Positions 27,787 through 46,942 of a DNA stretch of 53,275 bases are shown here, one piece after another. Origin of the DNA: a virus. The notes under the pieces were generated by a model. That model was given only the letters and a program-made list of their open reading frames with translations, was not told the origin of the DNA and did no database searches. The position numbers and the translations under genes were made by a program. Each line of letters opens with the position of its first letter. Position 1 is the stretch's first letter. Location of the stretch: the UHGV virus genome UHGV-0205694; one strand, 5' to 3'.

Positions 27787-30700
27787 ATGTCAGAACAAGA
27801 ATCAAGACTAGCGATACGCCTTGACAGCTCCGGGGCAGAGAAGCAAGCCGATAGCCTGGCGGTGGCTCTGGTAAAAATGACGCGCGCGGGTGAAGAGGCT
27901 GAAAGAGCAGCCGACGATCTGGGGGATGCAACTCAAAATCTAAATTCACGCCTTAGGGATGGTGCGACTGCAACAGGAAGAGCGACAAAATTTACTGAGG
28001 AGCAGCGAGAGGCATTTCGTAAACTCCGCGATCAGATTGATCCCGTGGGTGCTGCCATAGACAGAATTGGCAAAAAATACTCCGAACTTAAAGGATATTT
28101 TGACCGTGGTCAGATTGATCTTGAGGAGTATCGCTCGTTAGCGAAAAGCCTTGATGCTGCCACTAATGAATTAACTGGTGTGGCGAAGGCAGAGCGTGAA
28201 GCTGCAAAAGCAGCTGATGAGCAAAAAGCTGCATTACAGCGCCTAGCTGCACAGCTAGATCCTATATCTGATGGTTTTCGAAAAATTGCTGACAACCAGA
28301 AATTGTTGGATAGCGCAAAATCTAACGGAATGCTCTCTACAGAGCAGTACGACTCACTTTCTGGAAAGTTAAAACAAATGCGAGGCGAGCTTGAGTTGAC
28401 TCAGGCCCAACTCGGAAAAACGGGAATGTCAGCCAGACAAACCGCTTTTGCCATGCGCATGATCCCCGCACAGATGACTGATATCGTTGTCGGCCTCTCC
28501 ACTGGTCAATCTCCATTTATGGTGCTCATGCAGCAGGGCGGTCAGCTTAAGGATATGTTCGGCGGTATTGGCCCAGCGATTAAAGGCGTTGGCGGGTATG
28601 TAGTAGGGTTGATTAACCCCTTTACTCTGGCCGCTGCGGCGGTCGGTGTACTTGGTTTGGCTTATTACAAAGGTTCTCAGGAACAGGACGAGTTTTATAA
28701 ATCTCTTGTTCTTACTGGTAATCAGGTAAACAAAACATCTGGCCAACTTGCCGATATAGCTGCTCGCGCTGGAGTTGCAGCGGATTCAACCACAGGCAAG
28801 GCTGCATCAACACTTAATCTGTTAGTGTCATCGGGGAAGGTTGCTGGCGATTCGCTGGAGCGCGTGACAGCAGCTATCGTTAAGATCAGTGACGCGACGG
28901 GTATTGCTACCGATAAGTTGGTAAGCGACTTCAACGATATCGCCGCCGACCCGGTTGCAGCTATTACCAAGCTGAATGACCAGTACCACTTTCTGACGCT
29001 GGCGACCTACAACCAGATTAAAGCGCTTCAGGATGAAGGGAATCAACAGGAAGCTGCTCGCGTGGCGACTGATGCTTATGCTAACACCATGCAGCAACGA
29101 GCGAATGATATTCATGAGAATCTCGGTCTTCTGGAACGGGGGTGGAATTCTGTTACCAATGCCATAAAAGGGGCTACAGATGCATTATTGGATTTTGGCC
29201 GCGAAAAGGGACCATCTGAAAGATTAGCAGAGATAAGAAAAGAAATTGATTGGATCGATAAGGCTGCTGGCGGGAAGTTTTTTTTTGGTGGAAGAAAGAA
29301 TGAACTCGAAGCCGAGCTAAATAATCTTCAATCTCAAATCACCACTGAAAGCGTTTTAACTGGAATAATCAGCAATCATGACAAAGCAGAACAAAAGCGC
29401 ATTAAAACTCAGCAGGAAGCGGATCGAGTTAACCAGCAATATCTCAGCAATGCGGACAAGCGCAATAAAGCCATTAAGCAGCAGAGTGAGTTCCTGAAGG
29501 CTGGCGCAATCACAGCGGACCAATACGCTAAAAACGTTTCCCGCATTAACGAGATGTATAAGGATCCAAAAGCACCTAAAACGCCAAAGGAAAAAGCCTT
29601 TACAGAGGACGCCGCAACCCGACTGCTCGACCAGATTAACCAGCAGACTGCAGCCATGCAGTCCCAACTGGATGCCAGCGACAAGTTGAATAGCGCAACA
29701 CAGGCGCGGGTTAAGTTCGAGCAACAGATCGCTGACCTCAAGTCTAAAACGCAGCTCACTGCTGACCAGAAGTCGATCCTTTCCCGTTCAGATGAAATCC
29801 TCCAGGCGTATAAGCAGCAGGAGGCACTGCAAAATTCCGTAAAAACCCTGGACGATTATCGGAAGATGCAGGAAGAGATAACGCCGAAGGAGCTACGACA
29901 GAACGAGACGCTGCAAAAACGTCTCGAAATCCTGCAAAAGATGGTCGATCTCAAAAAGCTATCACCGGAAGACGCAGGGCAGCAGGCCAGCGATCTGATT
30001 GGTAAATCTGTACTTCCTGATTCCGTTATCTCAGGGGTGAACAAAGCTGGTGGAACGCTTACTTCTGGTGCGACTAATAGCGACCTGTCAGGGCAGGGTC
30101 TGAACATGATAGGGCTGCAAATTGACCCGCAACTTGAAATCATCGAGAAGCTGAAAGTTGCCCAGACTGATTATGCGGCCTGGCTGAATCAGCAACAGCA
30201 GGCGATAACGCAGAGCACCGTCCTGAATGAGCAGCAGAAGCAGCAGCAGCTACTGGCCTTACAGCAACAGGGCCAGCAGAATCAGGAGGCATTAACTACG
30301 GCTGTCTACGTTGCGCAGATGCAATCCGCTCAAAACTCCTTCTCCAGCATCACCGATTCGATGGGAACTATGTTTGGCGAGCAATCCGCGATGTATAAAG
30401 CTGCTTTTGTGACGCAGAAGGCATTCGCTATCGCTCAGGCAGCCCTGCAGCTTCCTATGGCGATGGGGCAGGCGATGGCTGGCTTGCCGTTCCCGGCTAA
30501 CCTTGCAGCTGTCGCTCAGGTTATCGGGCTCATGGCCTCCATTACTTCCAGCATCACCAGTGCCGCTGCTGTTGGCTTCGCCTCTGGCGGTTATACCGGC
30601 CCCGGCGGTAAGTATCAGCCCGCAGGTATCGTTCATAAAGGTGAATACGTCTTTGACCAGGCGTCAACGAACCGGATCGGGGTGTCTCAGCTTGAGGCGC

Positions 30701-30990
30701 TTCGGAATGGTAAACCGCTCGATGCCACGCTCAGCAAACCGGGTTTTGGGACCGGGGTGCAGAACGTGAATAGTGATAACAGCAGGAAAACCACTATTCA
30801 CGCACCGATAGAACAGCATTTCCATTCACCTGCTGGTGTAACCCCTGACCAGATGGCTATCTCCATGGCACAAACGCAGAAGCGGGCGACAACAGATGCG
30901 CTTAATCAGGTTGCAGCGCAAGTGCTGAAGGGGGACGGGAAAGTTGGAAACGCAATGCGCAATAAATACCCGGGAAGGGGGATAGGTTGA
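27787..30990 (+). CDS. tail tape measure protein
   Basis: 1067 aa, coiled-coil rich, Gly/Ala-rich hydrophobic central segments; follows G/G-T. Confidence 0.85.
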
Positions 30991-31463
30991 TGGCCAATAT
31001 CTACTACCCACATGACTATCTTCCAATGCCACTGCAGGAAGGATACGGATTCCAGCCTGTAAGCCCATTAAAACGAACTCAGCTAACCACCGGCCGCGCG
31101 CGGCAAAGGCGAGCTTATACGTCAACGCCGACGCAGGCCAGTATCGCCTGGTTCATGGAAAACGATGCTCAGGGACTGGCGTTTGAATCGTGGTTCCGCG
31201 ATGCATTATCTGATGGTGCGGCTTGGTTCCTGATGAAGCTGCAGACGCCGGCGGGCATTAAGTTTTATAAATGCCGGTTTACGGATATTTATCAGGGGCC
31301 GGAGCTGGTTGCGCCAATTTACTGGAAATATTCAGCGACTCTGGAGTTATGGGAACGTCCGCTTATTCCGGCACCGTGGGGTAATTACCCGGAATGGATT
31401 GTCGGTAGCTCGCTGCTCGATATCGCGCTGAATAAGGAGTGGCCAAAGCATGACGCAGATTAA
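30990..31463 (+). CDS. distal tail protein, putative
   Basis: Position after the tape measure; overlapping stop/start. Confidence 0.5.
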   Translation: MANIYYPHDYLPMPLQEGYGFQPVSPLKRTQLTTGRARQRRAYTSTPTQASIAWFMENDAQGLAFESWFRDALSDGAAWFLMKLQTPAGIKFYKCRFTDIYQGPELVAPIYWKYSATLELWERPLIPAPWGNYPEWIVGSSLLDIALNKEWPKHDAD

Positions 31464-31932
31464 CCGCCTTTATGCCAGCAGCGGGCCGGAGGTGATCATT
31501 GAAACGCTGCAGATAACTATCGGTTCTGATGTTCACTACCTCTGCCAGGGTTATGAGGATATTACCGCGACGACGGAGAACGGCGATACCGTAACATTTA
31601 CCGCCTGTGCGATAGACATTGCACTGCCGGCGCGCAATGCGGACGGTACGCAAGATTTGAAATTTGCCCTGTGCAATATCGATGGTGTTGTATCCACGGC
31701 GATCCGCAATGCGCTGGCGAACCGCCTTTCTGCGTCGCTGACTTACCGGAGTTATATTTCCACGGATTTAGCGGCGCCTGCAGCGGTTCCGTACACGTTG
31801 CAGATTAAATCAGGATACTGGACGGCGACAGAAGTGCAGATCACCGCGGGCTATATGAATGTCCTCGATACAGCCTGGCCGCGGTACCGCTATACGCTCC
31901 CATCATTCCCCGGTCTGCGTTACATCAGCTAA
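31450..31932 (+). CDS. minor tail protein, putative
   Basis: Position. Confidence 0.45.
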   Translation: MTQINRLYASSGPEVIIETLQITIGSDVHYLCQGYEDITATTENGDTVTFTACAIDIALPARNADGTQDLKFALCNIDGVVSTAIRNALANRLSASLTYRSYISTDLAAPAAVPYTLQIKSGYWTATEVQITAGYMNVLDTAWPRYRYTLPSFPGLRYIS

Positions 31933-31941
31933 GGAATCCCA

Positions 31942-32322
31942 ATGTTTAACCCTGATAAATACCTTTCAGTCACCTGGCTGAAGGGCGGCAGAGTGTATCC
32001 GCAACTCGACTGCTTCGGCATTGTGAACGAAATCCGGGCGGACCTTGGGCTGCCTCTCTGGCCTGAGTTCGCCGGGGTAACCAAAGACGACGACGGGCTC
32101 GACCGCGAAGCGCGCCGGATGATGCTTTCACTGGAACGCTGCGAACCTTGTGAAGGTGCCGGGGTTGCCTGCTATTCCGGTTCAGCAGTCACCCATGTGG
32201 GGATCGTCGTCAATATCGGTGGCATGCTGCACGTGGCGGAATGCAATCCGGTCACGAACGTCACCTTTCTGCTTTTACCGCGATTTAAGCGGCGATTTGT
32301 CAAAGTGGAGTTCTGGCAATGA
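31942..32322 (+). CDS. NlpC/P60-like tail protein (lambda K-like), putative
   Basis: Cys...His spacing (DCFGIV...THVGIV); position before the host-specificity protein. Confidence 0.45.
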   Translation: MFNPDKYLSVTWLKGGRVYPQLDCFGIVNEIRADLGLPLWPEFAGVTKDDDGLDREARRMMLSLERCEPCEGAGVACYSGSAVTHVGIVVNIGGMLHVAECNPVTNVTFLLLPRFKRRFVKVEFWQ

Positions 32323-35300
32323 CTATTCGTTTTTACCCGTCGCGGCTGCCTGGTGAACCGCTGGAAACGCATGAGCATGGCGTTACCACCATTCGCAGCT
32401 GGCTGGTTGCCAATGTCGAAGATTATGAGGATCGGGATGTTCCTCCGCTGGCTATTGAACTGGATGGCCAGCCGGTACCACCTGGCGAATGGGCGTTTTG
32501 CATCATCCGGCCGGAGAGCGATGTCCGCATGTACCCGGTTCCTTTCGGGCTTGAAGTAGCAACGATCGCATGGATAGGGGTAGGTATCGCCGTGGCAACG
32601 GCGGCTTATTCACTGTTCATGATGGGTAATATTGATGCTGGTGGCTATACGTCATCCACCGGACGAAGCCTCGACCTGAACCCCGCGAAAGCAAACAGCG
32701 CGAAACTGGGTGATGCGATTCGTGAAGTTTTTGGGCGCGTACGTATTTATCCGGATTATGTTGTGCAGCCCGTTACCCGGTTCGATGCTGCCGATCCCAC
32801 GAAAATGCGCGTACAGATGCTGCTGTGCCTTGGTGTCGGAGCTCTGGATTATACCAATGGCGATATCCGGGTTGGCAGCACGCCTGCATCGACCCTGCCG
32901 GGATTCAGCAGCACGCATTATCCCCCTGGTGCGGACGTATCAGGTGATGAGCGCAGTGAAAACTGGTTCAACAGTACGGAGGTGGGCGGGACGTCATCCG
33001 GTACCGGGCTGGACATGGCCCAGACGTCGCCGGATGCGGACGACATTATCGCAGACAGCATGACCGTTGCCGGAGCAGATGTAACGTTTACCGGGCTGGA
33101 CACGGATGACGGCGATGATGACGACGAGAACGACAATTCTCTTCCGGATAGCTGGGTAGAAGGCGCGATTGTTGAGATAAAGGCTCCCGCCAACTACCAG
33201 ATATCAACGGCGGCCGGGTACAGTGTTATCGCGAGTCCGCTGCTGACGGAGATCGCGCCGGTGGTTGGTATGCCGGTGACGCTGGGGTTTAACTCAGTCG
33301 ATTACGATCTGTTTATCGCGTCATATACACCGGGTCAGGCCGCCGTCCCCGGCGTCGGTGGCAGCGCTGCCAAAATTCAGGCCAGCGCAGCCCCTACCAC
33401 CTACGACTTTTCGACCAGCTCCAGCACGTTCACGATCACGTGGCGTGGCACAACTTATACGGTGTCGCTGGTGGCGAACTATGTCTCAATGTCGGGACTG
33501 CTGGCGGCCATCACCGAGGGGCTGACTGGCTCCGGTCTGGTCGCGCAGGACAACGGCGGCACCGTACTGATAACCGAGTCGGCCAGTCCGTTCGCGGGTG
33601 GGGCGGTCTCATCCTCTTCGCTGCCTGCTGCCGTTTTCGGTGATGCTCCGGTTTATACCTCCGGTACGGCGTCAACCGGCGGCAGCCCGGCGGTAACAGC
33701 AAACGTGACACTCGCCTATAACAGCGCCACGGGAACGGCCTTTTCCGGGATGCCGGAGGGGGTGCAACGGCTTTCACTTGCTCACCGCGGGAATGAGTAC
33801 CGGATTGTGTCAGCTGACGGCACGACGGCGACAGTGGGGCGCCTGGTAAACGGTGCAGTTGATGAGTCATGGCCGGGATTCACCACCAGGACGATGATCG
33901 ACTATGAGGCCACTGGCCTCAACGACACACTGAGCTGGCTGGGGCCGTTCCTGGTCTGTCCTGAAAATGAAACTGTGGATATGTTCGAAGTGAATTTTTC
34001 CTTTCCGAACGGCATCTGCGGTTTTGACAGCAAGGGCAAAAAACGACTCCGGCATGTTGAGTGGGAAATTCAGTATCGGATTTACGGCTCCGGCTCTGGG
34101 TGGGTCAGTAAACAGGGCGAGTACGCGCTGAAGAACGTCAACGGTCTGGGCTTTACTGAGCGGATTACACTCGGTTCACCTGGGCTTGTAGAGGTTCGTT
34201 GCCGACGGCGCAACGAACAGGGCTCCAATAATGCCAGGGATTCGATGTACTGGCAGGCACTGCGCGGGCGCCTGCTGACGCGTCCTTCATCCTATCCCGG
34301 CGTGTCGCTGATGGCGGTGACCGTCGAGACGGGCGGGAAGCTGGCGGCGCAGTCTGACCGCCGCGTAAACGTTGTTGGGACTCGTGCCTATGAAACCGGA
34401 ACGGCCAGAACCATTTCGGGGGCGCTGCTGCATGTCGGGAACTCGCTGGGACTGGAGATGGATGTCGACACCATCAACGCGCTGGAGTCTGCGTACTGGA
34501 CGCCACGGGGAGAGTATTTCGATTACGCTACCGGCGACAGTATCTCAGCGCTGGAAATGCTGCAGAAGATTACCACAGCGGGGAAATCGTATTTTCTGCT
34601 GAGTGATGGGCTCGCATCCGTAGGCAGGGAAGGGGTTAAGAACTGGTCGGGGATCATCAGCCCGCATGAAATGACCGAAGAACTGCAGACTAGTTTTACG
34701 GCACCGTCTGCTGATGATTACGATGGCGTTGATGTGACATATATCAACGGCATCACCTGGGCAGAGGAGACTGTGAAATGCCGAACACCCGACAATCCCA
34801 CGCCGGTGAAAATCGAGAACTACAAACTCGATGGGGTACTCAATCAGGACCACGCTTACCAGATAGGTATGCGGCGTCTGATGAAATATTTGCATCAGCG
34901 GCTGGGTCATAATACGACGACTGAGCTGGATGCACTGGTATATGAGTACGGTGATCGCATCCTGCTGACAGATGATATTCCAGGGAATAAAACCGTGAGT
35001 TGTCTGGTCGTGGATATGGCCACAACGGGTATCGAAACGGTATTTACCGTTTCCGAACAGCTGGACTGGACCTTTGAAAACCCGCGCGCAATTTTGCGCT
35101 ACCAGGATGGCTCTGCCTCGGGGCTGCTGGAGGCCACTTTCGTCGGGGATTATCAGCTGTCTGTTCCATGGCAAGCCGCTTTCGATGAAATCATGCTGAA
35201 CGATCCGAGCATTGAACCGCCGCGACTGGTGTTCTGTAGCTCAACGCGGGGTATCTATGACGCCATATTTGAGGAGATAGCGCCGCAGGCAGACGGAACC

Positions 35301-35378
35301 TGCCAGGTGACTGCAAGACAGTACAGCGACATTTACTACCAGTACGACGACGCCACATACCCCGGCGACGTCGCTTAA
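32319..35378 (+). CDS. tail host-specificity / central fibre protein (J-like)
   Basis: 1019 aa; position and size. Confidence 0.7.
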   Translation: MTIRFYPSRLPGEPLETHEHGVTTIRSWLVANVEDYEDRDVPPLAIELDGQPVPPGEWAFCIIRPESDVRMYPVPFGLEVATIAWIGVGIAVATAAYSLFMMGNIDAGGYTSSTGRSLDLNPAKANSAKLGDAIREVFGRVRIYPDYVVQPVTRFDAADPTKMRVQMLLCLGVGALDYTNGDIRVGSTPASTLPGFSSTHYPPGADVSGDERSENWFNSTEVGGTSSGTGLDMAQTSPDADDIIADSMTVAGADVTFTGLDTDDGDDDDENDNSLPDSWVEGAIVEIKAPANYQISTAAGYSVIASPLLTEIAPVVGMPVTLGFNSVDYDLFIASYTPGQAAVPGVGGSAAKIQASAAPTTYDFSTSSSTFTITWRGTTYTVSLVANYVSMSGLLAAITEGLTGSGLVAQDNGGTVLITESASPFAGGAVSSSSLPAAVFGDAPVYTSGTASTGGSPAVTANVTLAYNSATGTAFSGMPEGVQRLSLAHRGNEYRIVSADGTTATVGRLVNGAVDESWPGFTTRTMIDYEATGLNDTLSWLGPFLVCPENETVDMFEVNFSFPNGICGFDSKGKKRLRHVEWEIQYRIYGSGSGWVSKQGEYALKNVNGLGFTERITLGSPGLVEVRCRRRNEQGSNNARDSMYWQALRGRLLTRPSSYPGVSLMAVTVETGGKLAAQSDRRVNVVGTRAYETGTARTISGALLHVGNSLGLEMDVDTINALESAYWTPRGEYFDYATGDSISALEMLQKITTAGKSYFLLSDGLASVGREGVKNWSGIISPHEMTEELQTSFTAPSADDYDGVDVTYINGITWAEETVKCRTPDNPTPVKIENYKLDGVLNQDHAYQIGMRRLMKYLHQRLGHNTTTELDALVYEYGDRILLTDDIPGNKTVSCLVVDMATTGIETVFTVSEQLDWTFENPRAILRYQDGSASGLLEATFVGDYQLSVPWQAAFDEIMLNDPSIEPPRLVFCSSTRGIYDAIFEEIAPQADGTCQVTARQYSDIYYQYDDATYPGDVA

Positions 35379-35407
35379 TACCCCATAAAAACCCCTTATT
35401 AACTCTT

Positions 35408-35433
35408 TTCGCACAAACCCTCGTTTGGGCGAA
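35408..35433 (+). other. hix/gix-like 26-bp inversion crossover site (left)
   Basis: TTCGCACAAACC-CT-CGTTTGGGCGAA is an imperfect palindrome resembling gix TTCCTGTAAACC-GA-GGTTTTGGATAA; an inverted copy lies at 41522-41547. Confidence 0.5.
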
Positions 35434-35455
35434 CGCCTTTTTTGGAGCAAAAAAC

Positions 35456-37603
35456 ATGGCCTTTAACCCGGAGCTGGGGAGTACTTCTCCGGCGGTGCTG
35501 CTCGATAATGCCGAGCGCCTGGATAAGCTGGTGAACTCGGACGCTCTCACCGTGCCTGATCGCGCGGATGTTGATCTGGATACCTGGCGCGGATTCATGG
35601 CGAAAAATGACGAGATTCGTCAGAACCTTGTGCCATTGAGTAAGCAGTACATGACGCCTGAAGCGGCTCAGGCTGATATTGCAAACATCCCGGATGGCTC
35701 AACAACCTATGTACGCAGCCCTGATGATGCTTATCTGGCTGTTGAATACAAGAACACGGGTGGAACGTTAGAGGCTACCGGGCGCAGGATGATTTCAGCG
35801 GGATATGTTGACGCGTTGAGGGATTTAGTTATCACCGAACTGGCGAAGATTATGGCCTTCGGTGCCGCGCAGACAACTGATGCTTATCCGGATATTGCTG
35901 AACTGATTCTTGATAGTGTAGGGAATGCAGTTTATCGCCGCTTCGCGGACGGAACGAGCCAGTTTCCGGCGCTGATGATTGGTTCAGGGATTGAGCTTGT
36001 GCAAATGACGGGCGGAGGGTTTGTCTGCCAGATGCGCGCCACCGGAGAAGAAATATTTAATATTTCTGCATTGGGTAACCTGACGCATGGCAGCCAGACA
36101 ACGTGGTTTGCTGATGATGACAGTGTCAGTGATTATGCTGAAATACATATGGACGGACAGGGAAGAATTTTTCGGAGAGTTCTCACGGATGGTACTGTGG
36201 AGCAAGTGGGTGATGATACACCTGATGATGACGCCTCTGAATTCCCAATGGTTGCTTCAGTTGATGGAAACATCATTGCAGTAAACGGCAACAACGTTAC
36301 TCAGATAACGAACGACACCGGAGTTTCAAATATTGCTCCTGTAGCATTCGCTAAATTTCTTCGTTTTCTGTCCAACCTTAGCGGCAACTATCTGACGAAT
36401 CGCTCTACGTATAACGGGAAATACCGGGTGCGTGAAAGCAAGAATATCCTGCTTCATTACATTGGCACCGGGCAATCTCTTAAAGCAGGGGGATCGACGA
36501 TTAGCCAGGCTCCTGTCACTATCGCCTCAGAAGCAGACTATGGAGTGATCAGCTTTTCAACTGGCCCGAAGGTCGATTTCAAATACGATACTCTGGACGA
36601 ATCCCTGCTGGGATCGGCCACCCCTGCGCGAGAAAACGTGGGGACCCGTCCCGGCCAGGAGTCACCATCCAGCGGCATAGCTTATAAAATTCATGAGCTG
36701 ACAGGGCATACCGTTTTGGCCTCCACCGCTGCAAGTTCGGGTACAGATATTGCGGGGATTTCGGCTGGAACCGCCACGTTTACCGCCGCCACCAAAATGA
36801 TTCAGGCGGCCGTTGCGATGGCTGATGAACTGGGCATGGAGTATGTCCCGGTACTTGTGCTCATCCACGGAAACCAGAATGCGGCAGCAGGAACATCGAT
36901 ATCCAGTTATCGCACAGCGATGGAAACCCTGCGCACTCAGTATGAGTCTGTAATAAATGCCGCAACAGGCGAAACGCAGTCACTGCACATGTTTGTCGGG
37001 CAGCTATCCAACACGATCCCATATGGTGGCACTGCCGGCACGACAAAAACCAATAACATTGGCATCGCGCAGTACCAGGAGGCCCGTGATAACGCGTTAA
37101 TCCATCTCGCCAGCGCACAATATGCCCGCCCGTATTCAGACGGGGAGCATCTGACAAGCGCAGGATATCGGACAGAAGGTGAAGTTATTGGCGCGGTGGT
37201 TGGTGGGTGGCTGAATGACAACACAAAATCCTCGCTTGTGCCGATAGAGTCTGGTGTTGTGCAGTCCGGCACCACAATCACTATTCCTGTGGCGGGCTGT
37301 GTAGGTGATCTCGTGATTGACACCGCGAGGGTCACTGACCCCGGCAACTACGGATTTGTCCTGACCAGGGCCACTATTGCTTCGGTAGCCGTCAGCGGCA
37401 GCGGAACAGCGGCAAAAATAGTTATCACAAAGACCGATTCCACCACTGCGACGGCAATATCTTATGCAAGCCAGGGGATTGCGGGACAAAACCCTGGACC
37501 CGTTACTGGTTCGCGGGGGTGCATTCGTGACTCTCAGTCTGGATCATCACTATCCGGCCTGCCTCTCTATAACGATCTATGCGTTTTCTCCATCCAGCTT
37601 TAA
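35456..37603 (+). CDS. tailspike/tail fibre A with SGNH(GDSL)-type esterase motifs
   Basis: N-terminal ~110 aa shared with the inverted gene at 38967-41498. Downstream motifs IGTGQS (block I), IHGNQN (block III) and DGEH (block V). Confidence 0.65.
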   Translation: MAFNPELGSTSPAVLLDNAERLDKLVNSDALTVPDRADVDLDTWRGFMAKNDEIRQNLVPLSKQYMTPEAAQADIANIPDGSTTYVRSPDDAYLAVEYKNTGGTLEATGRRMISAGYVDALRDLVITELAKIMAFGAAQTTDAYPDIAELILDSVGNAVYRRFADGTSQFPALMIGSGIELVQMTGGGFVCQMRATGEEIFNISALGNLTHGSQTTWFADDDSVSDYAEIHMDGQGRIFRRVLTDGTVEQVGDDTPDDDASEFPMVASVDGNIIAVNGNNVTQITNDTGVSNIAPVAFAKFLRFLSNLSGNYLTNRSTYNGKYRVRESKNILLHYIGTGQSLKAGGSTISQAPVTIASEADYGVISFSTGPKVDFKYDTLDESLLGSATPARENVGTRPGQESPSSGIAYKIHELTGHTVLASTAASSGTDIAGISAGTATFTAATKMIQAAVAMADELGMEYVPVLVLIHGNQNAAAGTSISSYRTAMETLRTQYESVINAATGETQSLHMFVGQLSNTIPYGGTAGTTKTNNIGIAQYQEARDNALIHLASAQYARPYSDGEHLTSAGYRTEGEVIGAVVGGWLNDNTKSSLVPIESGVVQSGTTITIPVAGCVGDLVIDTARVTDPGNYGFVLTRATIASVAVSGSGTAAKIVITKTDSTTATAISYASQGIAGQNPGPVTGSRGCIRDSQSGSSLSGLPLYNDLCVFSIQL

Positions 37604-37616
37604 AGGACTGTAAATC

Positions 37617-38369
37617 ATGACTACCCGCTTTTATGTTGATAACGGCGTGACAGCCACGCGTTACCTGGACACTTACCCGTATCCAAACGACATCACGCAA
37701 CTACCAGCACTGATCCCCGGTATTATTTTGCAGGCGGATTTCGATGTGAATGATCCCGCCTCATTAACCAGAAACCGGGTTGGGGCTGCTATGTCCGTTG
37801 TTGGCTCTCCTGCTCTGGGTGATTACGGCGTCAGCCTTACTGAGGTAAACCACCTTGATACGAACATCGACATAGCAGCATATAACGGCAGCGATCTGAC
37901 AATGGTGACAATTGCAGTTCATCCAGGCGTTGTTGGTGCAATTGTAGGGCGCGCACAAATGAATGCCCCCCAGCGCTCGCGTGCGACGCAGACTACAACG
38001 ACAGGATGGCAGGCAAAATGGCTGACGTCTGCCGGAGCGGCGCAGCAGGCCATTATTGTCCCGTCCAGTGCAGCGGTCGATGGCGAAATGGCAGTCAGTC
38101 GGTTTGTGCGAGACAACGGTAGCGGATCAATGCTGACTAAGCTTGATCTGCCACGCACATCACAGTCAGCAACCGGCACCGCAGCGACGACTCCTTATGC
38201 TGTACCTTCGTCAAACATTCTGCTGGGCGGTTCGGTTGAGGGAGGCACGACAGCGAATATCTCTATGCGGGCCTGTCTGATTGTATCCAGGTCAATTACG
38301 AATACTGAAATGGCAACTATTTACACCTGTTACAAAAACTACTATCAGCTGAAAGGTAAAACTATTTAA
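37617..38369 (+). CDS. accessory tail fibre protein for cassette A, hypothetical
   Basis: Position downstream of tailspike A inside the invertible segment. Confidence 0.4.
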   Translation: MTTRFYVDNGVTATRYLDTYPYPNDITQLPALIPGIILQADFDVNDPASLTRNRVGAAMSVVGSPALGDYGVSLTEVNHLDTNIDIAAYNGSDLTMVTIAVHPGVVGAIVGRAQMNAPQRSRATQTTTTGWQAKWLTSAGAAQQAIIVPSSAAVDGEMAVSRFVRDNGSGSMLTKLDLPRTSQSATGTAATTPYAVPSSNILLGGSVEGGTTANISMRACLIVSRSITNTEMATIYTCYKNYYQLKGKTI

Positions 38370-38378
38370 GGGGCAAGT

Positions 38379-38573
38379 ATGGCTGGCTACATTGTCGATT
38401 ATCAGGCAACTAAAAACGGGCAGGTAATTTATTCTGGAACACTGGCGGTTGAGTCAGAGGGAACTGATGCTGCAGTAAAGGAGGCAGTTACAGCCGAACT
38501 GAACAACATCAATACCCAGTATGGCGGCGGCGTACCAGACTCCGTCATCGTTAACTCTTGGCTGGGAATTTAA
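38379..38573 (+). CDS. small hypothetical protein, cassette A
   Basis: Position only. Confidence 0.3.
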   Translation: MAGYIVDYQATKNGQVIYSGTLAVESEGTDAAVKEAVTAELNNINTQYGGGVPDSVIVNSWLGI

Positions 38574-38681
38574 TTTAACCGTAAAAGGATATATCTTCAT
38601 ATTATTTAAGATGAATAGATTTGCGGCTGTCAGTCATCTGGACAGCCGCTCTCATCCATTAAATCTGTGCTGTGAAATAAT

Positions 38682-38957
38682 TTATTGTGAAAAATCCTCC
38701 ATAGTCACAAGCTGCGCTTCTGCTTGTTCTGCCCACGACTTTGAAGATAAAACATCTAAAGTAATAGGGTAATCACCAGCGTTGACCTTCGCTCCATCAT
38801 CATATCGTACTGATATTGATGCCATTAACAGTCCCGCATCATCTTGCCTGACACTTTCAACAGCATAAATCAGGTCAATGTCTATCTCTTTATCGCACAG
38901 ATACCCACCCAGATAATAAATCTGGACTGTTTTTGTTGTTGATAATTTGAAAGCCAT
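38682..38957 (-). CDS. small hypothetical protein, cassette B
   Basis: Downstream of tailspike B on the minus strand. Confidence 0.3.
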   Translation of the reverse strand: MAFKLSTTKTVQIYYLGGYLCDKEIDIDLIYAVESVRQDDAGLLMASISVRYDDGAKVNAGDYPITLDVLSSKSWAEQAEAQLVTMEDFSQ

Positions 38958-38966
38958 AACAATTCC

Positions 38967-41498
38967 TCACGAAGGTAAATAATATTTTTCGCCATAAATC
39001 AGCTTGCACAGACTGAATGCCGCAGCATCTGCGCCAGCCTTGTAACTGACGGTATAGCCGAGGTCATTCGGATGGTTGTAATTAGGAGAGTTAAAAAGCG
39101 CCGACCATCCGTGAACCTCAACACCCAGCCTGAACGAGGGGATTTCAGCCTCCAGTACAAATGCGGATTTCCCACGCGCCACTGCACGCACCATGCTGTT
39201 GTAAAGGCCAAAACGTACATCCCCAACAACTTTAATGCCGCTTCCTGACCAGTCGGCCTCCACAAACGATTTTGAAGGTGGCGGGTCCAGCACCTCTTCA
39301 ATAATGCTGTCGAGATTGATGTGCTGAATGCTGGTATTAAGCAGGCCTGAAACCGGGATATTTTCTGCAACGGTGATGGTTTTCCTGTCCTCGGATATGG
39401 CGGCAATGGTGTAATCACCGGCATTCACACCGCTAACCCGAAGAATGTGCCCCGGTCGCAGGATTTGCCCGCCCCAGCTGGTCGCTGCGTTTCCTGTGTC
39501 ATAGGCAAATGCCGTGCTGTTTATAGTTTTGCTCACTGAATCGAATGTAAAATTCGCTGTAACGTTGAAGGTTCGAACCGGCCACAGGACATTAAGATCA
39601 CCCAGCGTGATGTTTTTGACGGTGGCGGACTCGACATTGTGGTGCGGCGTGGTGCAGACAATAACCACAGCGCCCTTTGCAGTGCACTGGTCAATAAGAT
39701 CTTCCAGCACTGCCCGCTGAAGTGGGTACGTGCGCCCGCGGTTAAAGTTCCCGGTCGGTGTGGCATCATTCATCCCGCCGACAATCAGCACGATATCCGG
39801 CCAGTCTTCAGGCTCACTGCTGGTGAAATAGGGCGAGTTTTGTAGCTGCGCGGCAAACTGGTGTATCGCCTGGCCTCCGATACTCTGGTTGTCGTCGATA
39901 AACTCAAATTCGCCATAGCCAGAAAGGTGCTCTTTCATCGCTTCAATAAACAAAGCGCTAGGAGAGAACGGCGCGCCCACCACACCCCCGTCAGTGGACC
40001 CAGCCCCCAGGCCTATGGAGGAGCCGGGCGTGGTTATAATTATGCGCTTCTTGGTTACAGTTCTGACGCCATTGCTGAACGAAATTTTACCGAATGGCGA
40101 GGTATTGGCCTGGGTTCCGTCACCGATAAGCTTTTTGCTCAGTTTAACGTAGGGGTCAGTGATTGCACCCTGCAGAGTGGTGACATCGCTTATGAGGTTC
40201 AGAATGTCGGTAGTCGGGTCCCCGGCATACAGCAATTTAAAGTTATTCTGTGGTGAGCCTCGGTATTGCACGGTAACAGGCATTGCTGCCCGCAGCTCTC
40301 CGCCAGTTAGTGCGGTATTGGCTCCTTTAAACAAACTACGTGTGACTGAGTTCCCGTAGAGGTCTGTAATAACCAGCGTTGTTGCACCGGTATTCGCCAC
40401 CACAGGCTCAAACGTTATCTGAGTACCGTCACCCAAAGAGCCAGGGATCGTGATTGATACCGCATCAGGAGTAGAGGTATCACTTGTCACTGTGGCTTTG
40501 GAATACGCATTCAATAAGCGGTTTCTGTCTGCCGGGTAGGTCAGCAGCCGAAAATCTGCTGAAGCGAAATTGAATTTAACGAGATACGTATAACCCGCTA
40601 CCAAATCACCAGCCGCGACGTTCGAACCGTTATTCTGCTTTATCTGGCGAGCGGTACCGCCATTGACTGAAAGCGTTGGCGTTCTGGTCGTGTTAGTAGC
40701 GTTCGGAGTAAAGAGGAACACACGATCAGAAGCAACAATACCAGGGATTGTAGATGCGGTGCCGGAATATGCGTCGGCATTATTAACAACTCCCGAAAGT
40801 AACGCGATGCTGTTTATTTCCAGTGCTGAAATTCTGACAGCCAACTCGGCCGCTACCGGACCGGATGCGACCATAACAAAATTATTAGCAGTCCCGGTTC
40901 TGAATTGCATCAAAACGGGCTGGCCCAGAAGTAATTCACCTCCGGTTAACGTCCCGTTGTTTTGCTTCTGTATTGCGCGCGTGACGCTGTTTCCCTTCGT
41001 ATCTGTAACGGTCACATTGACCGCAGCAGTGTTTAGAATTGGGGAAAGAAAATAGACCAGGCTACCTTCAATCAACAGTCCAGGAATGGTGATAGCGATA
41101 GTATTAGCCGCGCTGCTGCTAACCGCGGTAGCAGACTGATATCCCGTTGGAATCGCCGATGGCATTTTCCGACCCGTTGCAACCAGCGTACCGCCGACAT
41201 TCATATACTCAATAGCCAGATAAGCATCATCAGGACTGCGCACATAGGTTGTTGACCCATCCGGGATATTGACGATATCCGTCTGGGCCGCCTCAGGCGT
41301 CATGTACTGCTTACTCAATGGCACAAGGTTCTGACGAATCTCGTCATTCTTCGCCATCATTCCGCGCCAGGTATCCAGATAAACGCCAGCGCGGTCCGGT
41401 TCGGTCGGCGCATCACCATTCACCAGCTTATCCAGGCGCTCGGCGTTATCGAGCAGCACTGCGGGAGACGTGCTCCCCAGCTCCGGGTTAAAGGCCAT
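38967..41498 (-). CDS. tailspike/tail fibre B (alternative, currently inverted) with SGNH-like esterase motifs
   Basis: N-terminus ~85% identical over ~110 aa to tailspike A; C-terminal motifs TPGSSIG, GGMNDA and NHPNDLGY. Confidence 0.65.
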   Translation of the reverse strand: MAFNPELGSTSPAVLLDNAERLDKLVNGDAPTEPDRAGVYLDTWRGMMAKNDEIRQNLVPLSKQYMTPEAAQTDIVNIPDGSTTYVRSPDDAYLAIEYMNVGGTLVATGRKMPSAIPTGYQSATAVSSSAANTIAITIPGLLIEGSLVYFLSPILNTAAVNVTVTDTKGNSVTRAIQKQNNGTLTGGELLLGQPVLMQFRTGTANNFVMVASGPVAAELAVRISALEINSIALLSGVVNNADAYSGTASTIPGIVASDRVFLFTPNATNTTRTPTLSVNGGTARQIKQNNGSNVAAGDLVAGYTYLVKFNFASADFRLLTYPADRNRLLNAYSKATVTSDTSTPDAVSITIPGSLGDGTQITFEPVVANTGATTLVITDLYGNSVTRSLFKGANTALTGGELRAAMPVTVQYRGSPQNNFKLLYAGDPTTDILNLISDVTTLQGAITDPYVKLSKKLIGDGTQANTSPFGKISFSNGVRTVTKKRIIITTPGSSIGLGAGSTDGGVVGAPFSPSALFIEAMKEHLSGYGEFEFIDDNQSIGGQAIHQFAAQLQNSPYFTSSEPEDWPDIVLIVGGMNDATPTGNFNRGRTYPLQRAVLEDLIDQCTAKGAVVIVCTTPHHNVESATVKNITLGDLNVLWPVRTFNVTANFTFDSVSKTINSTAFAYDTGNAATSWGGQILRPGHILRVSGVNAGDYTIAAISEDRKTITVAENIPVSGLLNTSIQHINLDSIIEEVLDPPPSKSFVEADWSGSGIKVVGDVRFGLYNSMVRAVARGKSAFVLEAEIPSFRLGVEVHGWSALFNSPNYNHPNDLGYTVSYKAGADAAAFSLCKLIYGEKYYLPS

Positions 41499-41521
41499 GT
41501 TTTTTGCTCCAAAAAATAGCG

Positions 41522-41547
41522 TTCGCTTAAACGAGGGTTTGAGCGAA
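41522..41547 (+). other. hix/gix-like 26-bp inversion crossover site (right, inverted)
   Basis: TTCGCTTAAACG-AG-GGTTTGAGCGAA; its reverse complement matches the left site at 23 of 26 positions. Confidence 0.5.
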
Positions 41548-41590
41548 CGCCAGGAGCTTTTTACAATCAGCTATTTCAAAGGGTTACATC

Positions 41591-42142
41591 ATGCTGATTG
41601 GTTACGCCAGGGTGTCAACCGGGGATCAAAACCTCGATTTACAGAAAAATGCGCTGATCCGCGCAGAATGTGAGCTGGTTTTCGAAGATACGGCGAGCGG
41701 GAAGAATGCCCGGAGACCAGGGCTAAAACGCGCGCTGCGGCGGCTGCGACCGGGGGACGTGCTGGTCGTCTGGAAACTGGACAGACTGGGCCGCAGCGTG
41801 CGCGATCTGATTACGCTCGTGTCGGAGCTGCAGGCGCGCGGGGTGAATTTCCGCAGCCTGACGGACAGCATAGATACCAGTACGCCAGCAGGACGCTTTT
41901 TCTTCCATGTAATGAGCGCTCTGGCGGAAATGGAAAGAGAGCTGATCGTCGAGCGTACCCGCGCCGGTTTAGCAGCGGCAAGGGAGCAGGGGCGCATCGG
42001 TGGTCGCCGCCGGGTAATGACCGAAGAAGTAGTGGAACGCTGCCGCCGGATGTTGGATGCAGGTGCCACCCGTCAGCAGGTGGCGGGAGTGATCGGGGTA
42101 GATGTGAAGACGATCTATAAGTACCTGCCAGCTGCTGAATAA
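41591..42142 (+). CDS. serine recombinase, DNA invertase (Hin/Gin/Pin/Cin family)
   Basis: MLIGYARVSTGDQNLDLQ catalytic-Ser N-terminus; 183 aa; C-terminal HTH. Confidence 0.85.
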   Translation: MLIGYARVSTGDQNLDLQKNALIRAECELVFEDTASGKNARRPGLKRALRRLRPGDVLVVWKLDRLGRSVRDLITLVSELQARGVNFRSLTDSIDTSTPAGRFFFHVMSALAEMERELIVERTRAGLAAAREQGRIGGRRRVMTEEVVERCRRMLDAGATRQQVAGVIGVDVKTIYKYLPAAE

Positions 42143-42210
42143 TCATTAATTTGCGTCGGTGTGCCTGATTGATAGCTGCAATCTCTATTGATCAGATTAA
42201 CGAATATAAC

Positions 42211-42230
42211 TACTGTATATAAAAACAGTA
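42211..42230 (+). promoter_or_regulatory. LexA box
   Basis: TACTGTATATAAAAACAGTA (CTGT-N8-ACAG). Confidence 0.65.
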
Positions 42231-42248: not shown

Positions 42249-42488
42249 ATGCCGCGAAACTCAGATATCGAAATGGCCTGGCGTCAGGCAATTGTCATTG
42301 AATCAAATGGCCGCCGTACAGTGACAACATCCAGGTTTATCTTGGAACTCGCAAAAGTTAACTGGATATGGTCTCCGCGTCAGGCAAACCAGTGGATAGA
42401 GCATTATGTGACGACGTTCCGTGATGTCTCAACGAAAGAGGGGGATGAGCGAACATTCCAGCTTTATAACCCGAACGGAGGGCTGTAA
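42249..42488 (+). CDS. hypothetical protein (79 aa), first gene of a LexA-controlled pair
   Basis: GAGGTG Shine-Dalgarno; LexA box 19 bp upstream. Confidence 0.4.
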   Translation: MPRNSDIEMAWRQAIVIESNGRRTVTTSRFILELAKVNWIWSPRQANQWIEHYVTTFRDVSTKEGDERTFQLYNPNGGL

Positions 42489-42490
42489 TC

Positions 42491-42808
42491 GTGGGATTCC
42501 CGTCACCGGCTACGGATTACATTGAAACTGCTTTGACAGTGAATTCTCTGTGCAATATCGGTGCAAACTCGCGAGTTATCCCCACCGACCGTGGGTATGT
42601 CGTTCTGGACTTGTCGCTGAAGGTTAAGCAGGGGAGTATTCTACTTATACGTTCGGCAGGAGAACTGCAGTTTGCAAAGCTAATGGGCCGTTCATTTATC
42701 ACAGTTGAGGGAGAATCGATTGAAGGTGATGCCATGGATGAGGTAGAAGTGCTCGGAGTCGCAACGCACGTGATCAATGATATGCGGCAAGATGATGCTC
42801 CTGTTTAA
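42491..42808 (+). CDS. UmuD'-like protein (pre-truncated, HumD-like), S24 fold with degenerate Ser site
   Basis: MGFPSPATDYIE... matches the UmuD' N-terminus (GFPSPAADYVEQ); C-terminus VLGVATHVINDMR resembles VFGVVIHVVKAMR; GDSM is replaced by TDRG. Confidence 0.7.
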   Translation: MGFPSPATDYIETALTVNSLCNIGANSRVIPTDRGYVVLDLSLKVKQGSILLIRSAGELQFAKLMGRSFITVEGESIEGDAMDEVEVLGVATHVINDMRQDDAPV

Positions 42809-42809
42809 T

Positions 42810-43258
42810 GAAAGGATTTAGTTTCTCGATAAAACATAAGAAGAGCCTTGCGATAATCCTGGTTCGTTCCTGTAACGTATCCCTTGCTGACGATTAAGGC
42901 GCTACAGTGTAATATGCAGGCCAGCATACGGACAGGTAGGTTTGAGATAGTGTCCACCGATGTGTCCATTAAATAGAAAACGTTACAAAATAAGGTTAAA
43001 AAATCCTTATATATGAAGAATATAAGAAACTTTTCAATCATCGCTCACATCGATAATTGACACCAAGACACCCTAAGCCAACCTTAGACAATTTCTCGCT
43101 CAAGACCCGCCACAATCAACCCTCTTCGAAAAACTACTGTTTACATATACAGACAACCTAAGACAACGTAAGCCACTCTTTTTGTGTCCATAGCCGCGTC
43201 CATGAACTATGATGGACACGATCACAACATTTCTGATGGACACGGTGGATTATTTTCT
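42810..43258. other. AT-rich attP-like region with candidate arm-type repeats upstream of int
   Basis: CCTTAGACAAT / CCTAAGACAAC and two GATGGACACG repeats; position next to a P4-type integrase. Confidence 0.35.
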
Positions 43259-44488
43259 ATGGCTATTTCAGATAGTTATCTAAAGTCTTGCCTCGGGCGT
43301 GAAAGAGAAAAGGTCGAAGAGAAATCAGACCGCGACGGCCTGTGGGTGCGCATATCCCGGAAGGGGGCGGTAACCTTTTTCTACCGTTACCGTTTTCTTG
43401 GTAAGCAGGACAAGATGACGATCGGTAGTTATCCTGAGTTTGGATTAAAAGCAGCTCGTGAGGAGGTCGTTAAATGGTCGGCTATCCTCGCCCGGGGTGA
43501 GAACCCCCGGATCCGCCAGAGTCTGGATAAAGCAAAAATAAACAGTCAGCACTCGTTTGAAGAATTATTTCGTGAATGGCACGAGATGGTCTGTATCCAA
43601 AAGGAAACGGCTGACCAGATCCTGAGAACGTTCGAACTTCATGTATTCCCAAAGCTCGGGAAGTACCCGGCTAACCAACTCACATTACATAATTGGCTAA
43701 CCGTCCTGGACCGACTCGCCGAAGGCTACACAGAAATCACGAAGCGGGTGATCAGTAACGGCCGGCAGTGCTATTCATGGGCAGTTAAGCGCCAGTTACT
43801 GGAAAATAACCCACTGTCAGAGCTTTCCGGGCGTGACTTTGGCATTCAGAAAAAGATGGGGGAGCGGACGCTTAATCGCAAAGAACTGGCCATTGTCTGG
43901 CGTGCTATTGAAGATTCCCGCCTCATGGAAAGAAACAAGATAATGTACAAGTTATGCCTGGTTTGGGCTTGCAGGGTTGGGGAGATCCGTTTGGCAGAAG
44001 TTCAGCACTTTGATTTTGAAGAAGGTGTATGGACAGTGCCATGGGAAAACCACAAGACCGGTCGCAAGACCAAAAAGCCGCTGATAAGGCCGATCATCCC
44101 AGAAATGTTACCATTACTAAAAAGGGCCATTGAACTGGCACCCGGCCGGTATGTCTTCTCAAGGTATGAGGATAAGCCGATGAGTGAAGGTTTCCACTTA
44201 AGCATCAGCAGCAACCTGGTTAAGTTTATGCTGAAGTCATACAGTGAGCAGGTCCCTCACTTTACCGTTCACGATCTGCGCAGAACAGCGAGAACTAACT
44301 TTTCTGAGCTGACGCAACCGCATATTGCAGAAATTATGCTGGGGCATAAATTGCCCGGCGTCTGGTCAGTCTATGACAAGCATACTTATATCGAAGAAAT
44401 GCGCGATGCCTATAGCAGATGGTGGGCTCGACTGATGAGCATCATCGAGCCCGATGTGCTGGAGTTCACGCCGAGGCATGCCGGGTAA
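43259..44488 (+). CDS. tyrosine integrase, P4-like (N-terminal arm-binding DUF4102-type domain); longest ORF begins at 43184
   Basis: GLWVRISRKGAVTFFYRYRFLGK...IGSYP N-domain; catalytic HDLRRT box and C-terminal Tyr. Confidence 0.8.
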   Translation: MAISDSYLKSCLGREREKVEEKSDRDGLWVRISRKGAVTFFYRYRFLGKQDKMTIGSYPEFGLKAAREEVVKWSAILARGENPRIRQSLDKAKINSQHSFEELFREWHEMVCIQKETADQILRTFELHVFPKLGKYPANQLTLHNWLTVLDRLAEGYTEITKRVISNGRQCYSWAVKRQLLENNPLSELSGRDFGIQKKMGERTLNRKELAIVWRAIEDSRLMERNKIMYKLCLVWACRVGEIRLAEVQHFDFEEGVWTVPWENHKTGRKTKKPLIRPIIPEMLPLLKRAIELAPGRYVFSRYEDKPMSEGFHLSISSNLVKFMLKSYSEQVPHFTVHDLRRTARTNFSELTQPHIAEIMLGHKLPGVWSVYDKHTYIEEMRDAYSRWWARLMSIIEPDVLEFTPRHAG

Positions 44489-45853: not shown

Positions 45854-46942
45854 TTAGCCCACGTATTCCGGTTTCATATCGTCAAGGGTGATGCGGAACT
45901 GTTCATACAGTTCATCACCAAGATGGCGTTTGGCGGCGGTGAGGGTGCCTTCAGCTTTAGCAAACAGCTCGACAGCTTCCGGTTCGCCAGGGTTAGGCAG
46001 TGAATTGATCGCGGCCTCAATCTTGTTTCGTGCATCAACGAGGTAGTAGCGTTTCACTGCCTTGTTTTTCAGTTCGGTATACAGAGCAGTACCCAGCAGT
46101 GCTTTTTGCGATTCGATATCTACGCGGATGGCTTTAGCCTGATCAACAGAACTTGCAGAATCAATCCGGTTGCGCAGTTCGTCCGCTACAGAGTCAACGT
46201 TGACTGCAGAGTCTTGCACGCTGGCGGAAGCGCCCGCGGAGCTTGTAATCTCATCCAGCGTGATTTTTTCAGCCTGAGCCGGGTTGATTACCTTTTCCTC
46301 GCGCTCGTCAATCTCATCTGCGGTATAGACACCGAGGATCACATCCGGGCAGTACAGCCGCGCCCAACGTTTAACGGCGAGATAAGCCAGCTGCTGACGG
46401 GGATCTGTCGCCCAGAGTGTTGAATTGCGAACCTGTGCCTGCGAAAGCATCAGGACAAGCTCGCGAGGTTCGGATTCTCCTTTGAGCGTTGCCCAGGCGC
46501 GAACGCCCACACCAGCTTCATCTTTCAAATTCCAGCCCGGAGCGATGTACTTCTTGTTCTGGCTGCTTGTCTTCTCTATGAAGCGCCCTACGATATTTTC
46601 CCATTCCCCGAACCATTCGAAGTGGATTCGATCCTTTGTTGGCGCCATGGTATTGATTACCGCATTCACCAGTTGCGCTTCATAGCCAAGAACACCTGAA
46701 TTACCCACGATGAATGTTTTCTGTGCCACTGCGAATGGGTCCATGCCCCAGCGTGCAGCCTGCATTACAACAGCCATGCACGCATCTGGTTTCCCGCGGT
46801 AATGCTCGGGCACGAAGTTTCCACTATTGGCCATTACCTCCGAGAGCGTGCGCAGGCGGTTGAACAATTCACCATTCGTCAGGATTGAAACGTTGTCGAT
46901 CTTCTGGGTCTGGTTGTCAGTAGTTGCGACTAAATTGGACAT
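45854..46942 (-). CDS. recT: RecT-family single-strand annealing protein
   Basis: 362 aa; pairs with the large exonuclease gene immediately upstream; composition resembles Rac RecT. Confidence 0.65.
   Translation of the reverse strand: MSNLVATTDNQTQKIDNVSILTNGELFNRLRTLSEVMANSGNFVPEHYRGKPDACMAVVMQAARWGMDPFAVAQKTFIVGNSGVLGYEAQLVNAVINTMAPTKDRIHFEWFGEWENIVGRFIEKTSSQNKKYIAPGWNLKDEAGVGVRAWATLKGESEPRELVLMLSQAQVRNSTLWATDPRQQLAYLAVKRWARLYCPDVILGVYTADEIDEREEKVINPAQAEKITLDEITSSAGASASVQDSAVNVDSVADELRNRIDSASSVDQAKAIRVDIESQKALLGTALYTELKNKAVKRYYLVDARNKIEAAINSLPNPGEPEAVELFAKAEGTLTAAKRHLGDELYEQFRITLDDMKPEYVG

Follow-up and report, generated by a model that had tools for sequence, protein, structure and literature searches.

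How can a prophage carry two complete receptor-binding protein (RBP) genes that face each other behind a single late operon, and how might it choose between them? The question is raised by the virus genome UHGV-0205694, of which the whole stretch of 53,275 nucleotides (nt) analysed here is called the window, and within it by positions 35408-42142, where two large convergent genes, two inverted recombination-site-like sequences and a serine DNA invertase gene lie together. A sequence-only reading had proposed that inversion of this segment swaps entire RBP genes behind a constant J-like tail-tip gene, and public assemblies agree with it, an identical J being followed by either cassette and all four possible joints being found. 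We consider it very likely that the locus is a switch in which a Gin/Hin-type invertase places one or the other of two complete RBP cassettes behind an unchanging late operon.

Two complete RBP genes between inverted gix-like sites

The window is a lambda-like siphovirus prophage of Klebsiella, transcribed almost wholly rightwards. The features on which the argument rests are as follows.

32319-35378, plus strand: J-like tail-tip (host specificity, TipJ-type) gene, 1019 amino acids (aa); phrog_469, E = 1e-287, and phrog_31 'central tail fiber J'
35408-35433, unstranded: left site, gix/hix-like, 26 base pairs (bp), TTCGCACAAACC-CT-CGTTTGGGCGAA; core at 35420-35421
35434-35455, plus strand: cassette A leader with a T-run and the ribosome-binding site (RBS) GGAG, inside the invertible segment; near identical to the cassette B leader
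35456-37603, plus strand: RBP-A, 715 aa, now behind the late operon; phrog_4201 'tail fiber protein', E = 7e-90, full length
35456-35800, plus strand: N-terminal attachment part of RBP-A, aa 1-115; 88% identity to RBP-B
38967-41498, minus strand: RBP-B, 843 aa, now in the off position; PHROG families of its N-terminal part shared with RBP-A
41154-41498, minus strand: N-terminal attachment part of RBP-B, related to that of RBP-A
41499-41521, minus strand: cassette B leader with a T-run and RBS, inside the invertible segment; near identical to the cassette A leader
41522-41547, unstranded: right site, 26 bp, plus strand TTCGCTTAAACG-AG-GGTTTGAGCGAA; core at 41534-41535, in the opposite orientation to the left site
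41591-42142, plus strand: Gin/Hin-family serine DNA invertase, 183 aa, outside the segment; Pfam Resolvase, E = 5e-50, and HTH_7; phrog_125 'DNA invertase'

Much of this arrangement had been described by the sequence-only reading and stands: the two large converging open reading frames (ORFs) of 715 aa (plus) and 843 aa (minus), the plus-strand cassette placed behind the J-like gene, and an invertase gene just outside the segment, now with Resolvase and HTH_7 domains and a match to Gin at E = 1e-71. The similarity then put at about 85% over the first ~110 aa was measured as 88% over 115 aa, with nothing beyond aligning, and the near-identical inverted 5' untranslated regions with their RBS were found again as TTTTTTGGAGCAAAAAACATGG, carried by both leaders. 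The J-like gene, whose E. coli homologue is called 'TipJ family protein' by the NCBI pipeline, is the last constant gene of the late operon and directly precedes the switch.

Both sites are imperfect palindromes of 12-bp half-sites around an asymmetric 2-bp core, and the two cores are mutually inverted; as its reverse complement the right site reads TTCGCTCAAACC-CT-CGTTTAAGCGAA. Even with three mismatches allowed, the site pattern has exactly two matches in the 53-kb window, against 0.01 expected from shuffles, and the site length, half-site symmetry and asymmetric 2-bp core match those of Mu gixR, TTCCTGTAAACC-GA-GGTTTTGGATAA. As had been suggested, these candidate crossover sites lie upstream of both start codons, which follow 22-23 nt past the site ends, and the same placement recurs in 16 further complete loci. 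Both ORFs are complete and each has its own RBS. Since the T-run and RBS lie between site and start codon, the leader, the RBS and the whole ORF are all inside the invertible segment, which measures 6114 bp from core to core.

Reciprocal joints in public assemblies

The exact 715-aa, 843-aa, J and invertase proteins were looked up in public assemblies, and every joint was typed by the polymorphisms of its site. At the outer position 6, the J flank has A and the invertase flank T. Inside the segment, the 715-aa cassette is marked by GG at site positions 19-20 and GCC after the site, the 843-aa cassette by AA and GCTA. The joints were found as follows.

J joined to the 715-aa gene: window, GCA_054586695.1, ERZ27237787
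J joined to the 843-aa gene: Logan ERR13881994, ERZ28648348
Invertase joined to the 843-aa gene: window, GCA_015934245.1, SRR8652875
Invertase joined to the 715-aa gene: GCA_020117225.1 (90-kb contig), GCA_901563825.1 (214-kb contig), GCA_010590025.1, ERZ28648348, ERZ27237787

All four possible joints were thus recovered, and the flipped joints are exact reciprocal recombinants, so that the inverted-orientation molecules for which the sequence-only reading had asked are present in public data. The flank keeps the outer base in all flipped cases, and the gene carries along all sequence inward from position 19, leader included, which maps the crossover between site positions 6 and 19, that is, to 12 bp around the core. 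Both RBPs in the flipped assemblies are 100% identical to those of the window, with no chimeric N-termini. The 90-kb and 214-kb contigs in the flipped state are isolate contigs, and ERZ28648348 holds both flipped joints, J with 843 and invertase with 715, as a fully inverted copy would give. ERZ27237787 holds J with 715 together with invertase with 715, which places both orientations within one sample. Contigs with the identical J protein number 21 and appear to divide about evenly between the two states, a division that rests on a grouping of similar places. In addition, contigs of 6057 and 6052 bp in two isolate assemblies consist of the segment alone, which is suggestive of the mixed population from which such contigs would be expected.

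An inversion of this kind need not, in principle, involve the invertase. The segment is bordered by inverted-repeat arms at 35438-35800 and 41154-41516 (363 nt, 84% complementary), with a second pair reported by the repeat finder at 35408-35454 and 41501-41547, and arms of this length and identity could support rare RecA-dependent homologous exchange, in which case the invertase would be irrelevant. However, the longest exact repeat is only about 44 nt, the sites are gix-like in length, symmetry and core, and in every flipped assembly the exchange point falls within positions 6-19 of the 26-bp site. A crossover held within 12 bp, together with the lack of chimeras, points to site-specific inversion by a serine invertase and not to homologous recombination; the latter was rejected on the crossover mapping, and we give an account that leaves the invertase no part a very slim chance.

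In GCA_901563825.1 (locus L013, 3599-3605) a deletion in the flipped orientation joins window position 30499 to 40765, by which the tape-measure gene is fused to the C-terminal part of the 843-aa gene in a 1501-aa ORF and the J-like gene is lost; its sequence marks it as a decayed prophage in which the flipped orientation has become fixed. In L004 and L007 (GCA_020117225.1 and GCA_020116915.1) the contigs end at the same base, window position 39678 inside the 843-aa gene, which hints at an insertion or repeat in those strains.

The invertase and its candidate control elements

The invertase gene is intact and starts 44 nt beyond the right site. Its product aligns end to end with the Gin structures 4m6f and 3uj3 at about 65% identity (E = 1e-71), with Ser9 kept. 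Two candidate control elements lie at or within the gene.

41539-41567, plus strand: promoter-like TTGAGC-17-TACAAT for the invertase, by consensus match only
41621-41680, unstranded: candidate recombinational enhancer, invertase codons 11-30, the stretch of lowest synonymous codon diversity

The first hexamer of the promoter-like site falls within the outer half of the right site, an overlap that would allow the invertase to regulate its own expression. Autoregulation is known for Cin.

Is the reaction likely to depend on Fis and an enhancer, as in the classical systems? Over 40 distinct invertase genes, synonymous diversity at codons 11-30 is 0.31 against about 0.9, the lowest of 140 blocks of 20 codons. 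Such a minimum suggests a DNA element overlapping the coding sequence, for which a recombinational enhancer is the obvious candidate. The block sits 86-146 bp from the site centre; the hin enhancer lies inside the recombinase gene roughly 100 bp from one hix site (PMC3798978), and by homology the gin enhancer is expected at the corresponding place. The basic helix-B patch of Hin (K47, R48, K51) is specific to the invertase subclass (PMC3798978), and K46, R47 and R50 of the present protein (...RPGLKRALRRL...) align with Gin K46, R47 and K50 in an alignment read by eye. Because the helix-B patch is kept, the diversity minimum falls at codons 11-30 and its position is like that of the hin enhancer, dependence on an enhancer and Fis is plausible by analogy. 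A search with a degenerate Fis consensus gave one G-N13-C match (gene nt 71-85) shared with gin, the other expected site being degenerate. A small terminator-like hairpin on the minus strand, 41650-41665, also lies within the stretch of codons 11-30.

If the invertase acts as its relatives do, its dimers would bind both sites and bring them into synapse, a step that Fis and an enhancer at the 5' end of its gene probably assist; the DNA would then be cut on both strands at the central CT/AG, rotated by 180 degrees and religated. Only the cassette then joined to J would be reached by late transcription, and each cassette would supply its RBS, its start codon, a 115-aa docking part for the same tail tip, a different distal part and its accessory gene or genes. 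A lysogen population would in that case release two kinds of virion that may differ in the surface polysaccharide or receptor they recognise.

Predicted silence of the off cassette

Because the whole prophage is transcribed rightwards, late transcription is inferred to reach the J-linked cassette alone. No block of the prophage other than the off cassette reads leftwards, and a promoter scan found no promoter-like site facing the off gene from the invertase side. Read from that side (41509-41560, minus strand), the site and its flank form a hairpin of -20 kcal/mol (z = -4.6) with a U-run behind it; the J-side value (35396-35446) is -11.7 kcal/mol. Over all loci the median hairpin energy is -20.0 kcal/mol on the invertase side versus -16.2 on the J side; in the various loci the stem is extended by the invertase-side flank, to between -20 and -33 kcal/mol, and GCUCC, complementary to the cassette RBS, is frequent in this flank. 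The recombination site with its T-run, resembling an intrinsic terminator, may insulate the off copy from transcription.

These observations bear on a second possibility, namely that both RBPs are expressed in either orientation and inversion is a neutral by-product of a resident invertase. The off cassette does have its own RBS, and many Klebsiella phages carry two RBPs at once. Set against this are the leftward isolation of the off cassette, the lack of a facing promoter-like site and the terminator-like hairpin and U-run before it. The same attachment part on both RBPs also suggests competition for one docking place, and diverged loci strictly keep the sites, the spacing between them and the place of the invertase. 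We regard the neutral account as improbable.

The RBPs and their accessory genes

We assign both large proteins as receptor-binding tail proteins because of their position after the tail-tip gene, their PHROG matches and their shared modular N-terminal part. Profile comparison of the two families confines the relationship to aa 1-115, and the shared part heads many PHROG families with other C-termini. The remaining features inside the segment are listed here.

37617-38369, plus strand: accessory gene A1, 250 aa; phrog_4390, E = 2e-8; a gene call in other assemblies
38379-38573, plus strand: accessory gene A2, 64 aa; a gene call in other assemblies
38625-38651, unstranded: GC-rich inverted repeat GCGGCTGTC...GACAGCCGC between the converging cassettes, read from the sequence
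38682-38957, minus strand: accessory gene B1, 91 aa; a gene call in other assemblies
About 39642-40019, minus strand: SGNH/GDSL esterase domain of RBP-B, aa 494-619; PF13472, 33.8 bits against a cut-off of 32.9

Homologues of RBP-B are named 'SGNH/GDSL hydrolase family protein' in their source records. RBP-A has no recognised catalytic domain in Pfam, and Pfam matches with E up to 10 gave nothing useful for the middle region of the 715-aa protein, the 250-aa ORF or the N-terminal part. At about aa 336-570 of RBP-A, the motifs GTGQS, HGNQN and DGEHLTSAGY and an alternating strand-helix prediction resemble the blocks of SGNH proteins and sialate-O-acetylesterases, a resemblance that no profile search supports. 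Neither RBP had a match in PDB sequence searches, and no beta-helix family is among the Pfam matches of either; 'tailspike' is thus a guess as a label, and 'receptor-binding protein' the safe term.

That each large gene is followed by its own accessory gene or genes, another point of the sequence-only reading, holds in the form of 250- and 64-aa genes on one side and a 91-aa gene on the other. These small genes are type-specific, each set co-varying with its own RBP type across loci: A1 occurs only with the 715-type RBP (L096), A2 is found at 82% identity beside the 715-type RBP of the same locus, and B1 at 71-76% identity beside 843-type RBPs in L034, L042, L073 and L082. Compared with Pfam and PHROG, A1, A2 and B1 matched no tail-fibre assembly family. 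The inverted repeat between the cassettes is a possible two-way transcription stop; a simple terminator scan did not flag it.

The esterase domain makes one further alternative worth weighing, that the switch mainly serves the lysogen, an altered surface-active protein of the prophage blocking other phages or modifying the cell surface. An SGNH esterase could act on surface polysaccharide, and in E. coli the PinQ-driven inversion of the e14 P segment yields a protein that blocks T2 adsorption (PMC12529663). However, the cassettes occupy the usual place of RBP genes in the late operon and lack a promoter of their own. From replication through tail genes the prophage looks complete, with O-like and P-like replication genes, a methyltransferase, an endolysin, the large terminase, portal, major head protein, tail tube, tape measure and minor tail genes, and its relative KPP5665-2 forms infectious particles (PMC5658490). 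A function chiefly for the lysogen strikes us as quite improbable.

Distribution of the module

How widespread is the arrangement? A scan of IMG/VR with the site pattern matched at least 120 stretches. Among the matches listed, both sites are present in 16 loci, with inverted cores in 16/16 and the sites 5.3-7.4 kb apart; from each site an RBP ORF of 515-1081 aa starts at 47-50 nt, in most cases with an ORF of about 250 aa behind it. Two sites are the most seen in any scanned locus. Between site and invertase start lie 44 nt in 43 of 44 loci. In the outside-to-inside reading, the core is CT at 85 of 87 J-side sites and at all 44 invertase-side sites. The two others, L033 (7025-7050) and L090 (2602-2627), have the opposite J-side core polarity (AAACG-AG-GGTTT from J), and their J protein is diverged, at 53% identity. 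The same layout is found in KPP5665-2, a plaque-forming temperate siphovirus with infectious particles (PMC5658490).

Among GTDB species representatives the site is confined to Klebsiella and Raoultella, apart from one contig of 1095 bp in a Streptomyces assembly (L152) that bears an exact copy of the site pattern and is probably contamination. Invertase plus site occur in 40 of 5426 complete E. coli genomes.

Several loci appear to be remnants or reduced forms. Seventeen J-side loci have enough flank to be judged; 14 have the invertase, and three carry a single cassette without invertase and keep the site. In these three (L096, 1406-5000; L059; L123) the site lies between the J-like and RBP genes and no invertase is found within 8 kb or more. 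In E. coli p10A (L153, 8709-9413) IS26 lies directly beside the invertase at the expected cassette position, and in the sister strain p10B the module is whole except that the RBP gene in the on position is a truncated pseudogene; as we read these sequences, the pair shows IS26-driven decay of the switch. Phage ST846-OXA48phi9.2 (L001, 8355-8477) has a 40-aa 'Hin recombinase' remnant and the J-side site only, a degenerate module.

Cassette types were compared by k-mer and gapped analyses. The 113 distinct joints place about 70 unrelated RBP bodies behind the site; a single cluster of J ends is joined to 11 RBP types, and 17 types are found on both the J and the invertase side. In 22 pairs an identical 200-nt outer flank is combined with RBPs unrelated to each other; 18 of them first diverge in the inner half-site or leader. 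The pairs are not independent of each other, some being two states of one phage. It is tempting to consider the 26-bp site as the standard boundary of a portable RBP cassette made up of the leader, the RBS, the attachment part, the RBP body and its matching accessory genes, with Gin-like invertases not only flipping cassettes but also swapping them between co-resident prophages. We offer this tentatively and think it rather unlikely, even if exchange at the site would help explain how the same J-gene ends came to be followed by about 70 unrelated RBP bodies in prophages of Klebsiella, Raoultella and E. coli.

Comparison with known inversion systems

By all features testable here, the element is classed as a member of the Gin/Hin invertase family. 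Like the G segment of Mu with Gin and the C segment of P1 and P7 with Cin, it has its invertase outside one segment end and two inverted 26-bp sites with a 2-bp asymmetric core; like Mu G and P1 C, it has two converging fibre cassettes, each with its own downstream accessory gene, and likely alternates host range. The type-specific small genes after each RBP may be the counterpart of the Mu-type U and U' assembly genes, but they match no tail-fibre assembly family. The half-site begins TTCGC.. here, as opposed to TTCCT.. or TTATC.. in Mu and P1, the DNA-binding domain differs as well, and the host phage is a lambda-like siphovirus in place of a myovirus. The central difference is that the fibre gene S of Mu and P1 contains the left site, by which a constant N-terminal part receives alternative C-terminal parts (AF083977 annotation), whereas here whole genes are exchanged. 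A crossover inside the fibre gene, the defining feature of Mu, P1 and e14, is found neither here nor in the 16 other loci.

In E. coli, Pin of e14 and PinQ of Qin are likewise Gin-family invertases that flip a prophage tail-fibre segment, and PinQ acts in trans on the sites of another prophage (PMC12529663); the e14 inversion, however, recombines gene parts into chimeric proteins, unlike the chimera-free exchange seen here. The Hin H-segment of Salmonella shares the recombinase family, the 26-bp hix sites and an enhancer in the recombinase gene (PMC3798978). Hin moves a promoter together with its own gene past fixed genes; here, in contrast, the promoter would be fixed, promoter-less cassettes move and the invertase stays outside the segment.

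The Min system of p15B, the R64 shufflon and the Rin shufflon of a Bifidobacterium prophage also diversify an adhesin or RBP by inversion. They shuffle C-terminal segments between many sites, in contrast to two complete genes between two sites; a multi-site shufflon was ruled out for the window, which holds only two sites. In overall logic the sap locus of Campylobacter fetus is similar, whole genes with conserved 5' ends being placed in turn behind one promoter by inversion. That inversion, however, is RecA-dependent, uses homologous 5' regions without a serine invertase, and concerns bacterial S-layer proteins.

The closest published observation may be in K. pneumoniae ST14, where evolved clones show a roughly 5-kb inversion in prophage #4 that comprises five ORFs (fibre genes and hypotheticals) beside a DNA invertase (10.64898/2025.12.17.694638). 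The authors of that preprint give no sites or mechanism and suggest that the inversion may lower fibre production (10.64898/2025.12.17.694638); likened by its description, it is probably the same kind of element, for which exchange of one complete RBP for another would be a more specific explanation.

The region beyond the invertase

To the right of the invertase, LexA-box-like sequences CTGT-N8-ACAG lie at 42208-42228 and 43132-43152. The first precedes a 79-aa ORF at 42249-42488 (phrog_3893) and a short UmuD-like ORF of 105 aa at 42491-42808 (phrog_3469) at the prophage end, an arrangement suggestive of an SOS-controlled cargo module, which is also present after the single cassette of L096. 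Genomes in which lepA borders this prophage are similar to the window only up to 43053. Past that point the window and SRR8652875 enter a second integrase-bearing element, which indicates that the source strain carries two tandem prophages here.

43184-44488: integrase of the second element
45854-46942: RecT
46954-49893: ExoVIII-like gene

Weighing and significance of the proposed switch

A few findings weigh against the switch as we have presented it. The sample with both orientations, ERZ27237787, is a metagenome, and the contig breaks at the repeats are no more than suggestive of switching within a single clone. The three invertase-less relatives indicate that the site may persist without switching. 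The degenerate-consensus search found no convincing pair of Fis sites at the expected spacing in the invertase gene. Lastly, the AlphaFold models of the RBPs, built from 24 and 20 homologues, have a mean predicted local distance difference test score (pLDDT) of 45.7 and 46.3, too poor to confirm a fibre or spike fold.

Tail-fibre inversion is itself textbook knowledge; what is new here is the exchange of complete genes at a site in the untranslated leader. To our knowledge, all described cases of inversion in phages swap only C-terminal parts onto a constant N-terminus. Our literature search found no published description of a whole-RBP-gene inversion design, and neither the genome announcement of KPP5665-2 nor the paper depositing related prophages mentions the arrangement. 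In Klebsiella, Raoultella and some E. coli the design is common among temperate siphoviruses, its genes being labelled 'kinase', 'flagellar biosynthesis protein' or 'hypothetical', by which the switch has gone unnoticed.

If our reading is correct, the 26-bp site and the 115-aa attachment part would form a natural plug-in point for engineering phages with exchangeable RBPs. If the orientation sets the capsule or O-antigen target, one lysogen would release two host-range types, and the switch would then matter for predicting prophage tropism from sequence, for the interpretation of host-range tests with induced Klebsiella phages and for transduction from one capsule type to another.

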